Of a DNA stretch of 64,000 bases, positions 11,541-52,157 are shown piece by piece. The notes beneath the pieces are model-generated. The model searched no databases, was not told the DNA's origin, and saw only the letters and a list, made by a program, of their open reading frames with translations. Each line of letters starts with the position of its first letter. Position 1 is the first letter of the stretch. The translations under genes and the position numbers were made by a program. The stretch lies in the NCBI RefSeq assembly GCF_054482525.1, contig NZ_CM137006.1. One strand, 5' to 3'.

Positions 11541-12551
11541 TTAGATATGGGTAACGATTTCTTTAATCAGCGGCGGACCTTTAAAAATAAAACCAGAATA
11601 AATTTGCACCAGTGAGGCCCCCGCAGCAATCTTTTCACGCGCAGCGATAACCGAGTCAATGCCGCCAACACCGATGATCGGTAAGCGACCGTTTAATTCC
11701 TGTGACAAGCGGCGAATAATTTCTGTGCTTTTTAACTGAAGCGGACGACCACTTAAGCCACCGGTTTGATCGCAATTTTTCATTCCCTGAACCAGAGAAC
11801 GATCGAGAGTGGTATTGGTTGCAATAACGCCATCAATATTATGGCGAACTAAACTATCGGCAACCTGGATCAATTCTTCTTCAGAAAGATCCGGCGCGAT
11901 CTTCACTGCGATCGGCACATATTTATGGTGCATCGCTTGCAAATCATTTTGCTTATTTTTAATCGCGGTTAAGAGATCATCCAGCGCTTCGCCATATTGC
12001 AGTGTGCGTAGTCCTGGGGTATTCGGCGATGAAATATTGATGGCGATATATCCCGCATAAGCATAGATTTTTTCCATACAAATCAGATAGTCATCTTTAC
12101 CCTGCTCCACCGGCGTATCTTTATTTTTGCCGATGTTAATACCCAGGACGCCATCATAATGGGCTTTTTTTACGTTCTCTACGAGGTTATCAACGCCAAG
12201 ATTATTAAAGCCCATACGGTTGATCAAACCTTCGGCATCTACCAGACGAAAGAGACGCGGCTTGTCATTACCTGGCTGTGGACGTGGCGTGACGGTACCG
12301 ATCTCGATCGATCCAAATCCCATCGCGCCTAACGCGTCAATGCACTCCCCGTCTTTATCAAGACCGGCTGCCAGACCAAGCGGATTTTTAAACGTCAGGC
12401 CCATGCAGTTAACAGGTTTCGCAGGCACTTTCTGCCGCACCAGTGCTTCAAACGGCGTTCCGGTAATGCGGCGTAATTGCTGAAAAGTAAACTCATGAGC
12501 GCGCTCTGGATCGAGCTGGAAAAGGGCTTTACGAACGAAGGGGTAGTACAT
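11541..12551 (-). CDS. pyrD: Dihydroorotate dehydrogenase (quinone) PyrD (336 aa)
   Basis: ORF-track 11541..12578 trimmed to the conserved start [11 protein letters not shown]; class 2 DHODH sequence. Confidence 0.95.
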
Positions 12552-12637
12552 GAACTCTCCTGGATTCCCGGTGTGCAAACCGGGGGCGTATTATGTGCGA
12601 GTTCGGACCAAAAGGGAATTGACCTGTGGCAAAAAAA

Positions 12638-12653
12638 GCGCAAACGTTTTCCG
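12638..12653. promoter_or_regulatory. PurR-box-like element upstream of pyrD (GCGCAAACGTTTTCCG)
   Basis: Good match to the PurR operator consensus ACGCAAACGTTTTCTT (recalled), about 90 nt upstream of the pyrD start. Confidence 0.45.
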
Positions 12654-12661
12654 AGCCTGTT

Positions 12662-13372
12662 TCAGAGCAGATTTTGCTCCTTCTTTGCACTCAACCCGCC
12701 GTAATCATTTATCGTCCGCCAGGAGACATGACACGGTGCTATTGCCTGACACCAGCTTGTCTGACGCTGGCTTTTAGGTGGCACAACTCCCGCATTACTT
12801 AACGCTTTACCATTTACGCTCACCTGAATCAGGTTAATGTAGTAAGGCGTTGGGTTAGTGAGTTGTACACCCTGCGAATTCCGTGTCCAGCGTAATTGTT
12901 GATAAGCTTCCAGCGGGTCGCCCGGCAAACCTTCGGGTCGCCAGAACAGTTTAAATACCGAGCGCATCGCCACTTTTACGCTCTGATTTTCAACTTTGCC
13001 GGATGGCACGCTGGCAATGCTTAACTCAAATAGCGTTTCGCGATCCACAGGCAAGATGTCGCTTTCCGTTCTCAGCAAGCGCAACGTGCCTGTAGTACCG
13101 GGCTTCAGGAGAACAAGTGGTGGAGCGACCAGTAGTGGTGCTGACCCTGTCGATGCTTCGCCCCCGGCCCAACGCGTTGGGCGATTGATTTTACTGTTAA
13201 TAAGCCAGGATTCCTGACTGGTATTAGTCAGTGAAATAGATATCGATTCTCTGTCTGCCGGGAAGATAAATCGCGTTCCGCCAACCACCACTCCTGCCTG
13301 CAATTCCCCCGCCACCAGCAGCGATAAAACGGCAAAAATCGCGAGCGTCAATCTGTTCCACGTATTAGTCAT
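12662..13372 (-). CDS. ycbF: Periplasmic fimbrial chaperone YcbF (PapD-like)
   Basis: ORF-track 12662..13399 trimmed to MTNTWNRLTL (236 aa); last gene of the elf chaperone-usher cluster. Confidence 0.8.
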   Translation of the reverse strand: MTNTWNRLTLAIFAVLSLLVAGELQAGVVVGGTRFIFPADRESISISLTNTSQESWLINSKINRPTRWAGGEASTGSAPLLVAPPLVLLKPGTTGTLRLLRTESDILPVDRETLFELSIASVPSGKVENQSVKVAMRSVFKLFWRPEGLPGDPLEAYQQLRWTRNSQGVQLTNPTPYYINLIQVSVNGKALSNAGVVPPKSQRQTSWCQAIAPCHVSWRTINDYGGLSAKKEQNLL

Positions 13373-13880
13373 AATGAAGTACAAATGTCGCGCTGGCATT
13401 CACTTTACCCGACTGCACATCGCTATTAACAGGTCGCAATTGCGCATAAAAAGTTAATGGCACCTTACCGCTATGTAGGCTGTAGTCTTTACTCGCCTGG
13501 TTAAGCGGAATCAATATTTTCGCATCATCCAGAATCGCAATTGCCAGCCCACTGGCTGCATCCGTACCACTTTCAATGGACAGCATTTCGCTCTGCATTC
13601 CGTCGGGTGTTCCTGAAAAGGTAACGTCAACCGTGCTGACATCTGTTCCGCAATCCTGCAAATTAATGATGAAAGATTTCTCCGGGCCATAGTTCCCATG
13701 AGAAAAACGTGTCAGCGAGACATCGCCTAACTGCACATTGATTTGCTTGCTATCCTGTGCCAGCACGCATGTATTACGGCGAAACGATCCGCTAATGTTG
13801 ACCGTGCCATCATGGGCAAATAGCTCACAACCCCCCGTTAATCCCAGTAAGAACAGAATCCAGATTATCCGTTTCAACAT
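13365..13880 (-). CDS. ycbV: Fimbrial-like subunit YcbV
   Basis: ORF-track 13365..13928 trimmed to MLKRIIWILFLLGL (171 aa); signal peptide; 8-nt overlap with ycbF start. Confidence 0.75.
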   Translation of the reverse strand: MLKRIIWILFLLGLTGGCELFAHDGTVNISGSFRRNTCVLAQDSKQINVQLGDVSLTRFSHGNYGPEKSFIINLQDCGTDVSTVDVTFSGTPDGMQSEMLSIESGTDAASGLAIAILDDAKILIPLNQASKDYSLHSGKVPLTFYAQLRPVNSDVQSGKVNASATFVLHYD

Positions 13881-50412: not shown

Positions 50413-52157
50413 TGGCCAAACTGCATTTTGTGAAGTTGCGCGTAAACGCCACGGTGCTCAAGCAAATCGTTATGCGTACCGCGTTCCACAATGACACCAT
50501 CCTCGACGACCACGATTTCGTCTGCCTTTTCAATGGTAGACAAGCGGTGGGCAATCACCAGAGAGGTACGGTTTTTCTGCAACTCATCCAGTGCCGCCTG
50601 AATCGCACGTTCGGATTCGGTATCCAACGCCGAGGTAGCTTCGTCCAGAATCAGAATCGGGCTATCACGCAACAAGGCTCGAGCGATAGCAATACGCTGA
50701 CGCTGACCGCCAGAGAGCAGCACGCCGTTTTCACCAATCACTGTATCGAGACCGTTATCCATCTTATTGATGAAGTCCATGGCGTAGGCCATACGCGCCG
50801 CTTCTTCAATTTGCTCACGGCTGTACTGTTCAGTCCGTGCGTAAGCAATGTTGTTAGCAACCGTATCGTTAAACAGATGGACATTCTGCGACACCAGAGC
50901 AACCTGGTTACGTAACGACGCCAGGGTATACTCGCGCAGATCGTGACCATCCATCAGGATTTCGCCTTCATCAATATCGTAAAAACGCGTGATCAGGCTG
51001 GCGATGGTTGATTTACCTGAACCAGAGCGTCCAACCAGAGCAACCGTCTTCCCTGCCGGAATTTTCAGGTTGATGTTACGCAATGCGGGTACGTCACGTC
51101 CCGGATAAGTAAAGGTGACGTTGCGGAATTCCACGTCACCAGTCGCACGCTCGATCACGCGCTTACCTTCGTCTTTCTCCTGCTCACTGTCCAGAATGGT
51201 AAACAGCGTCTGACAAGCCGCCATACCGCGCTGGAACTGGGCGTTAACGTTGGTCAGCGATTTCAGTGGACGCATCAGTGCAATCATTGAAGAGAAAACA
51301 ACGGTAATCGTACCGGCAGTCAGGTTATCCATAACACTTGGGAAGCTCGCCGCATACAGAACAAACGCCAGCGCCAAAGAGGCGATCAGCTGAATGATCG
51401 GATCAGAGATGGAAGAGGCTGAAACCATTTTCATCCCCTGAAGACGCATTCGGTTACTGACTTTATCGAAGCGTTTCGTTTCCACTTCCTGACCACCGAA
51501 AATCAATACTTCTTTGTGGCCCTTCAGCATTTGTTCTGCGCTGGTGGTCACCTGCCCCATGGTGTTCTGCATGTTTTTACTGATGTTGCGAAAACGCTTC
51601 GATACAACGCGAATCGCAATCGAAACAATCGGTGCCAGCACAATCAAAATGATCGACAGTTGCCAACTGTAATAAAACATCATGATGAACAGGCCGATGA
51701 TCGACGCACCTTCACGCACAACAGTAATCAGTGCGCCGGAAGAAGAAGAAGCAACCTGTTCGGAATCGTAAGTGATACGTGACAACAGCGTACCCGTTGA
51801 CTGTTTGTCAAAAAATGAAACAGGCATTCCCATCATGTGACCAAACAGGCGGCGACGCATAGTCATTACCACCTTTCCTGATACCCAGGAGATACAGTAG
51901 CTGGAGACATAGCTGGTGATACCACGTAAAATCATCAGCCCGATCACCACCAGCGGCATCCACACCAGCACGGAGCGATCTGTTTTACCAAAGCCATCAT
52001 CAAGAAGTGGCTTAAGGAGCGATAACATGAAGGTATCGCTGGCTGCGTTGAGGATTAACGCTACGCCCGCCACGATCAGACCCGCTTTAAAAGGCGCAAT
52101 GGTTGGCCACAGTCGGCGGAACGTCTGCCACGTAGAGAGATCTTTGTCGTTATGCAT
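50409..52157 (-). CDS. msbA: Lipid A flippase ABC transporter MsbA
   Basis: ORF track, 582 aa; six-TM domain, Walker [10 protein letters not shown], signature LSGGQRQR. Confidence 0.95.

Follow-up and report, generated by a model that had tools for sequence, protein, structure and literature searches.

Organization of the pyrD locus

The analysed window, a stretch of 64,000 nucleotides (contig NZ_CM137006.1), is E. coli chromosome with the synteny ycbF-pyrD-zapC-ycbX. A 501-nt query taken across the sequence upstream of pyrD matched 5,425 of the 5,426 complete E. coli genomes, several of them at 100%, and the annotated features under the match were ycbF and pyrD. The gene order in K-12 MG1655 is ycbV-ycbF-pyrD-zapC-ycbX, and the window therefore shows the K-12 map in reverse complement. 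The features of the pyrD control region and its two flanking genes, all of them on the minus strand, are given below in the direction in which pyrD is transcribed.

12662 to 13399, minus strand: ycbF, fimbrial chaperone, last gene of the elf/ycb operon (stop codon 12664-12662)
12638 to 12653, minus strand: PUR box of pyrD, CGGAAAACGTTTGCGC, assigned as a very probable PurR operator from the matrix, K-12 orthology, and conservation
12631 to 12637, minus strand: run of seven T adjoining the box on its downstream side, about -54 to -48, conserved across genera
12611 to 12630, minus strand: near-invariant block GCCACAGGTCAATTCCCTTT / GCCRCAGGTCAATTCCCTTT, the -35 region, about -47 to -28
12590 to 12595, minus strand: -10 hexamer CATAAT, with ATAAT invariant in 82 upstream regions
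12581 to 12584, minus strand: alternative start-site cluster, assigned by applying the description in PMC6524683 to the sequence
12567 to 12584, minus strand: leader hairpin CCCGGU-UUGCAC-ACCGGG, the consensus structure of Rfam RF02373
12546 to 12619, minus strand: match to Rfam PyrD_leader RF02373, 97.9 bits, excluding the PUR box
11541 to 12551, minus strand: pyrD coding sequence, quinone-dependent dihydroorotate dehydrogenase (ATG 12551-12549)

The pyrD open reading frame extends from 12578 to 11541, and the true start is the ATG at 12551, which is preceded by the Shine-Dalgarno sequence AGGAG at 12561-12557.

Sequence and matrix score of the PUR box

PurR, a dimeric repressor of the LacI family, requires hypoxanthine or guanine for binding to DNA, and it kinks its operator at the central CpG. 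An earlier note on this DNA had proposed a PurR-box-like sequence in the pyrD leader region, and its sequence and coordinates were borne out when the window was read directly, with GCGCAAACGTTTTCCG occupying 12638-12653 on the plus strand. The letters are as quoted there, although the functional orientation is that of the opposite, minus strand, in which the box spans 87-102 nt before the pyrD ATG. The distance of about 90 nt given for it agrees with a near edge at 87 nt and a box centre at 94.5 nt from the ATG. The box is an imperfect palindrome centred on the CpG at 12645/12646 and, as in the operators of the pur regulon, the 16-bp palindrome with its central CpG fits the published motif ACGNAAACGTTTGCNT and lies in the control region of a purR-dependent gene. 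The three mismatches of CGGAAAACGTTTGCGC to this motif are all at outer positions (1, 2, and 16), and all nine positions that vary little or not at all among ChIP sites are present. The count of 13 matches in 16 positions is therefore arithmetically right but has no statistical weight, since the count alone is not above chance. The pyrD box is the sole match in the window to ACGNAAACGTTTGCNT with up to three mismatches, where dinucleotide-preserving shuffles average 9.1, and for the nine-base invariant core GNAANCGNTTGC the chance expectation is 1.3 occurrences per window. Mismatch counting and invariant-core matching were both dropped as evidence, being at or below chance expectation.

As consensus counts are uninformative and the identity of the matching positions matters, a weight matrix was used, composed of the 27 PurR motifs in Table 1 of Cho et al. 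2011 (PMC3159470) with pyrD left out. The matrix scan, which had been suggested as a check, gave 18.93 bits for the window box and 21.06 bits for the K-12 box. Leave-one-out scores of the ChIP-supported sites ranged from 7.4 to 25.1 bits, which puts the window box in the middle of the range of proven sites. It was also the top match on both strands of the 64 kb, standing above a background in which the runner-up reached 13.95 bits. An estimate assuming independent, identically distributed bases gave p = 2.6e-7 per position for 18.93 bits, or 0.03 expected occurrences per window, while, when the whole window was shuffled 300 times with its dinucleotides preserved, the same score was reached in 19 cases (window-wide p ~0.06). 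Taken alone, the sequence statistics within the window are thus marginal and only suggestive. A chance, functionless resemblance to the PurR consensus would be in line with these expectations of 9.1 sites and 1.3 cores, and with the roughly 6% of shuffled windows that score equally; what makes the site decisive is its location within about 100 bp of a known regulon gene, combined with the K-12 orthology and the conservation in the best 80 species loci described below.

The runner-up, ACGACCACGATTTCGT at 50506-50521 on the plus strand, was rejected as a second PurR site, its score of 13.95 bits being expected 0.7-1.4 times per window by chance. It sits in the 3' part of a 582-aa open reading frame, just ahead of the next gene; by its size and map position, we take this reading frame to be msbA.

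Comparison with the K-12 site and allelic variation in E. coli

The orthologous box in K-12 MG1655 is CGGAAAACGTTTGCGT, and 15 of its 16 bases are identical to those of the window box. Their sole difference is the last base, which is T in K-12 and C in the window (12638). The K-12 site resembles that of the window in its position, 87-102 nt before the ATG, and in the promoter and leader, and the two sequences are identical from the -35 block through the ATG. When 171 nt covering the upstream region and the beginning of pyrD were aligned to K-12, four differences were found, at 12638, 12627, 12655, and 12666.

Cho et al. 2011 listed CGGAAAACGTTTGCGT as the PurR motif inside the pyrD ChIP-chip peak, and in the genome version that they used its coordinates correspond to 87-102 nt ahead of the pyrD start (PMC3159470). 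The peak was present only with adenine and belonged to the weaker signals, with a log2 ratio of 1.01, and pyrD was counted among the previously characterised PurR targets (PMC3159470). Likewise, pyrD is given as directly repressed by PurR in two sources (PMC3159470; PMC6245113). The review passages dealing with these genes cite Choi and Zalkin 1990 and the genetic work of Wilson and Turnbough 1990 for a weak PurR repression of pyrC and pyrD, worded there as much lower than that of the pur genes, and Vial et al. 1993 for a dual purine/pyrimidine control of Salmonella pyrD. The identity of 15 of 16 bases with the published K-12 PurR site thus supports the proposal that pyrD is under purine-repressor control through this box. 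The sequence, the score, the orthology, and the conservation are what the present analysis shows; in vivo occupancy of the K-12 site and purR-dependent repression have been reported in papers. The pyrD PurR operator has therefore already been described, and the window carries a common one-base allelic variant of it, a conserved but ordinary site.

The distribution of the two alleles was obtained with a query of 83 nt whose last base was the variable one, by recording where the match ended in 60 evenly spaced genomes of the ycbF type. The C allele of the window was present in 7 of these genomes and absent from the other 53, which, together with the T of K-12, points to T as the majority allele in E. 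coli. Replacing T by C at the last position costs 2.1 bits, and T occupies position 16 in 22 of the 27 ChIP sites. It is therefore conceivable that the box is a PurR operator by descent which this change, away from the base that is presumably also the E. coli majority allele, has weakened until purine control of pyrD was lost. Such a loss is distinctly improbable because C occurs at position 16 in 5 of the 27 ChIP-supported sites, including purHD, with carAB, yjcD, and ygfT sites also carrying it, and in 14 of the 82 aligned boxes; in addition, about half of the proven sites score below the 18.9 bits of the window box. Judging from these sequences, the one-base variant of the window strain should still bind PurR.

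Regarding box strength within E. coli, the sequences form a series composed of CGGAAAACGTTTGCGT with 21.1 bits (K-12; locus L001, position 1182), the window form ending in GCGC with 18.9 bits, and AAGAAAACGTTTGCTA with 13.9 bits, the last found in genomes without the fimbrial operon (APEC O1; locus L083, positions 1571-1586).

Conservation of the box across Enterobacteriaceae

Species-representative genomes were scanned with PyrD, and the best 80 loci were used for comparison. They belong to the genera Escherichia, Citrobacter, Salmonella, Kosakonia, Enterobacter, Klebsiella, Kluyvera, Trabulsiella, Cedecea, and Buttiauxella, among others, and were aligned together with K-12 and the window (n = 82). 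In 80 of 80 loci the top PurR-matrix match within 300 bp upstream of pyrD was in gene orientation; the box was located 100-113 nt before the ATG and scored 12.8-25.2 bits, a score whose chance is at most 0.006 per 300-bp upstream region. Eight positions of the box were invariant in the 82 aligned sequences (G3, A6, C8, G9, T11, T12, G13, and C14), A5 and A7 were nearly so, and positions 1, 2, 4, 10, 15, and 16 were variable. The mean information per column amounted to 1.46 bits in the box, compared with 0.21 and 0.46 bits in the 12 columns on the left and the 12 on the right, respectively, and the conservation per column followed the profile of the ChIP-derived PurR matrix with a Spearman coefficient of 0.81. 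A discrete conserved footprint is thus found at the orthologous position throughout the best 80 species loci, with the profile that purifying selection on a PurR site would be expected to leave.

These observations bear directly on a chance origin of the box. It lies exactly at the orthologous position of the ChIP-supported K-12 site, it has been kept in the best 80 species loci while both flanks decay, and its conservation follows the PurR matrix column by column, which leaves the probability of a functionless resemblance practically negligible, despite the within-window expectations given above.

A different question is which protein the palindrome serves. The operators of Cra and RbsR carry a core of the AAACGTTT type, and a AAACGTTT centre is common to several LacI-family operators. 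As the pyrD box has this centre, it could be used mainly or additionally by another regulator of the family, for example Cra or RbsR, with PurR being incidental. The outer positions, however, fit the half-sites of PurR, with G3, G13, and C14 being invariant in the orthologues as they are in the matrix, and PurR occupancy at the K-12 site has been reported in vivo. Moreover, we know of no report of another factor at the pyrD box, and we regard its use by such a regulator in place of or beside PurR as very unlikely. Taking the evidence together, the window box is very probably the PurR operator of E. coli pyrD.

Upstream neighbourhood of the box

The gene ycbF adjoins pyrD in 4,065 of the 5,426 complete E. 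coli genomes. In 1,302 others, which are B2-like and include APEC O1 and ATCC 25922, the fimbrial operon is missing and ssuE and pyrD are arranged divergently, which is also the arrangement in most other genera among the best 80 loci. The ycb/elf fimbrial operon is thus an insertion between ssuE and pyrD, and a ycbF-like gene (55-58% identity) was found at the equivalent place in Pseudocitrobacter. The box is kept in both E. coli arrangements despite their differing flanks. Since no more than 8 nt separate the end of the insertion from the box, the box may mark the upstream limit of what pyrD requires.

The same proximity raises the possibility of an element acting at the RNA level, in which the palindrome and the T run would form an intrinsic terminator or the 3' end of the ycbF fimbrial operon, given the seven T behind the box and the distance of 8 nt between the box and the stop codon of ycbF. 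The predicted RNA fold is weak (-6.0 kcal/mol, z = -0.12, range -0.1 to -0.5) and no better than that of shuffled sequences, and a terminator scan of a 350-nt region found no terminator-like site on the minus strand, on which pyrD lies. Furthermore, conservation of the box and the T run is just as strong in about 70 species and in about 24% of E. coli genomes in which ssuE lies divergently upstream, so that there is nothing to terminate. A role as terminator is accordingly hardly credible, and the reading as a PurR operator is retained.

In the same neighbourhood, the terminator scan flagged on the plus strand, antisense to ycbF, the inverted repeat GAGCAGATTTTGCTC at 12665-12679, which is located in the last codons of ycbF. 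This repeat is probably due to chance, with 0.4 such sites expected in the 350-nt region scanned.

Promoter and leader of pyrD

A scan with the sigma-70 consensus near pyrD found no canonical -35/-10 pair, and the promoter was placed from the invariant ATAAT together with the start sites described in a review (PMC6524683). According to this source, pyrD transcription starts with C at a high CTP/GTP ratio and, at a low ratio, with a G two bases downstream, and the extra 5' Cs permit a hairpin that lowers the translation of pyrD (PMC6524683). Applied to the window, the description assigns the starts to C12584/C12583 (high CTP/GTP) and G12581 (low). In the 82-sequence alignment, the invariant ATAAT is followed by ACGCCCCCGG. 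The -35 hexamer TTCCCT, at a 17-bp spacer, is weak, and the distance from the near-invariant block to the -10 hexamer equals 29 in 79 of 80 scorable sequences. The leader was predicted to fold with -10.4 kcal/mol when started at C and with -6.3 kcal/mol when started at G, the hairpin being complete only in C-started transcripts.

The hairpin at 12584-12567 is the only structured part of the Rfam family RF02373 (PyrD_leader), which concerns the same locus and covers promoter-proximal DNA, hairpin, and start codon. It is an RNA leader family and stops 19 nt short of the box, which, as a DNA operator, lies outside the transcript. With respect to C12583, the box is located at about -70 to -55, with its centre at -62.5, or at -61.5 to -64.5 depending on the alternative start. 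The comparison with the promoter therefore places it within the upstream control region of pyrD, in agreement with the earlier note, but the term "leader" used there does not hold, as the box is beyond the -35 region and outside both the transcribed leader and the RF02373 match. Nor does it occupy the stretch between -35 and +1 in which an operator would occlude the promoter. Of the conserved elements in the control region, the box is the one furthest upstream.

Downstream of the box, the sequence TTTTTTTGCCRCAGGTCAATTCCCTTT (12611-12637, minus strand, ~28-54 bp upstream of the start) is near-invariant in the best 80 species loci. The conservation of this 20-27 bp block, located between the box and the -10 hexamer, exceeds that of the box itself. 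Its 3' part corresponds to the unstructured positions 1-9 of Rfam PyrD_leader, though it is situated upstream of the start site. The seven-T run at its beginning would be similar to a distal UP-element subsite in the T-rich half of the latter.

Spacing between the box and the promoter

In 31 of the 80 sequences measured, the centre of the box lies 19.5-21.5 bp from the invariant GGTCAATTCC of the -35 block, and in the other 49 it lies 29.5-32.5 bp away, with no intermediate spacing. The difference, which recurs between genera, is situated between the box and the T run, at the equivalent of 12637/12638 in the window. On a neighbour-joining pyrD tree, the spacing state changes at least five times, always by 10-11 bp. 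As this length corresponds to one helical turn, PurR would be kept on the same face of the helix, at about -62 or about -72. Positions of about -62 and -72 are those of classic class I activators. It is possible, if doubtful, that the position of the box is constrained to one helical face. If so, repression of pyrD would depend on the face from which PurR acts on the polymerase alpha subunit or an UP-like element, and no such way of repressing has been described for PurR. The two spacings could also have arisen by mutation, through slippage between two T runs that deletes that length; many of the long-spacing forms read GCGTTTT...TTTTTTT. Separately, the E. coli series of 21.1, 18.9, and 13.9 bits may tune the cross-talk of purines and pyrimidines between lineages.

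Comparison with other PurR-controlled promoters and proposed mechanism

The strong pur operators (purF, purL, purMN, purHD, and others) share with the pyrD box the 16-bp palindrome and the co-repressors. Fourteen of 32 PurR motifs are situated between -35 and -10 (PMC3159470), and PurR sites mostly overlap the promoter or act as a roadblock (PMC6245113). The pyrD box, in contrast, does neither. Since it lies beyond the -35 region, PurR would not block the core promoter as at the strong pur operators, which fits the weak repression. The pyrD box thus belongs to the upstream, weak-repression class.

The pyrC gene of K-12 has the same regulator and a similarly weak repression across pathways, and its box has a like left half, AGGAAAACGTTT. 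Both pyrC and pyrD show start switching sensitive to CTP/GTP with a leader hairpin (PMC6524683). However, the pyrC box AGGAAAACGTTTCCGC abuts the -10 region, with its centre at about -22 by our reading of the sequence, and the pyrD box is ~40 bp further upstream. The pyrC box also scores lower than the pyrD box, at 16.4 bits, and no PurR site was detected at pyrC by ChIP-chip (PMC3159470). Another example is the PUR box of carAB P1, which, like that of pyrD, lies far upstream of the core promoter of a pyrimidine operon and is associated with weak repression. Its centre is at -128.5, and PurR alone does not repress there but depends on remodelling induced by PepA (PMC6245113). While carAB needs PepA, such a partner is not known for pyrD; the dependence of carAB P1 nevertheless makes a partner factor at pyrD possible. 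PurR bends the DNA by ~97 degrees at carAB, with a similar deformation at purF (PMC6245113).

The following course of events can be proposed for pyrD. When purines are plentiful, PurR would take up hypoxanthine or guanine, and the liganded dimer would bind the 16-bp box, causing a modest drop in pyrD transcription. The C-terminal domains of the polymerase alpha subunits normally contact DNA at about -40 to -60. Liganded PurR at 12638-12653 would be located just upstream of these contacts, and the right end of the box and the T run would overlap the zone of the distal UP-element subsite. PurR may then disturb the contacts of the alpha C-terminal domains with the T-rich DNA at -48 to -59, may bend the upstream DNA unfavourably, or both, so that initiation would be reduced and not abolished. 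The pyrD studies of 1990 and 1993 by Wilson and Turnbough, Choi and Zalkin, and Vial et al. reportedly found about twofold repression by PurR.

Significance of the site

The site ties purine availability to pyrimidine synthesis and is that of a textbook member of the PurR regulon, and its presence here merely confirms a normal E. coli pyrD locus. What is mildly new is the comparative anatomy, composed of the clean footprint, the two spacings, and the box strengths. The comparative set could serve as a small natural experiment on weak repression by an upstream-bound repressor of the LacI family.
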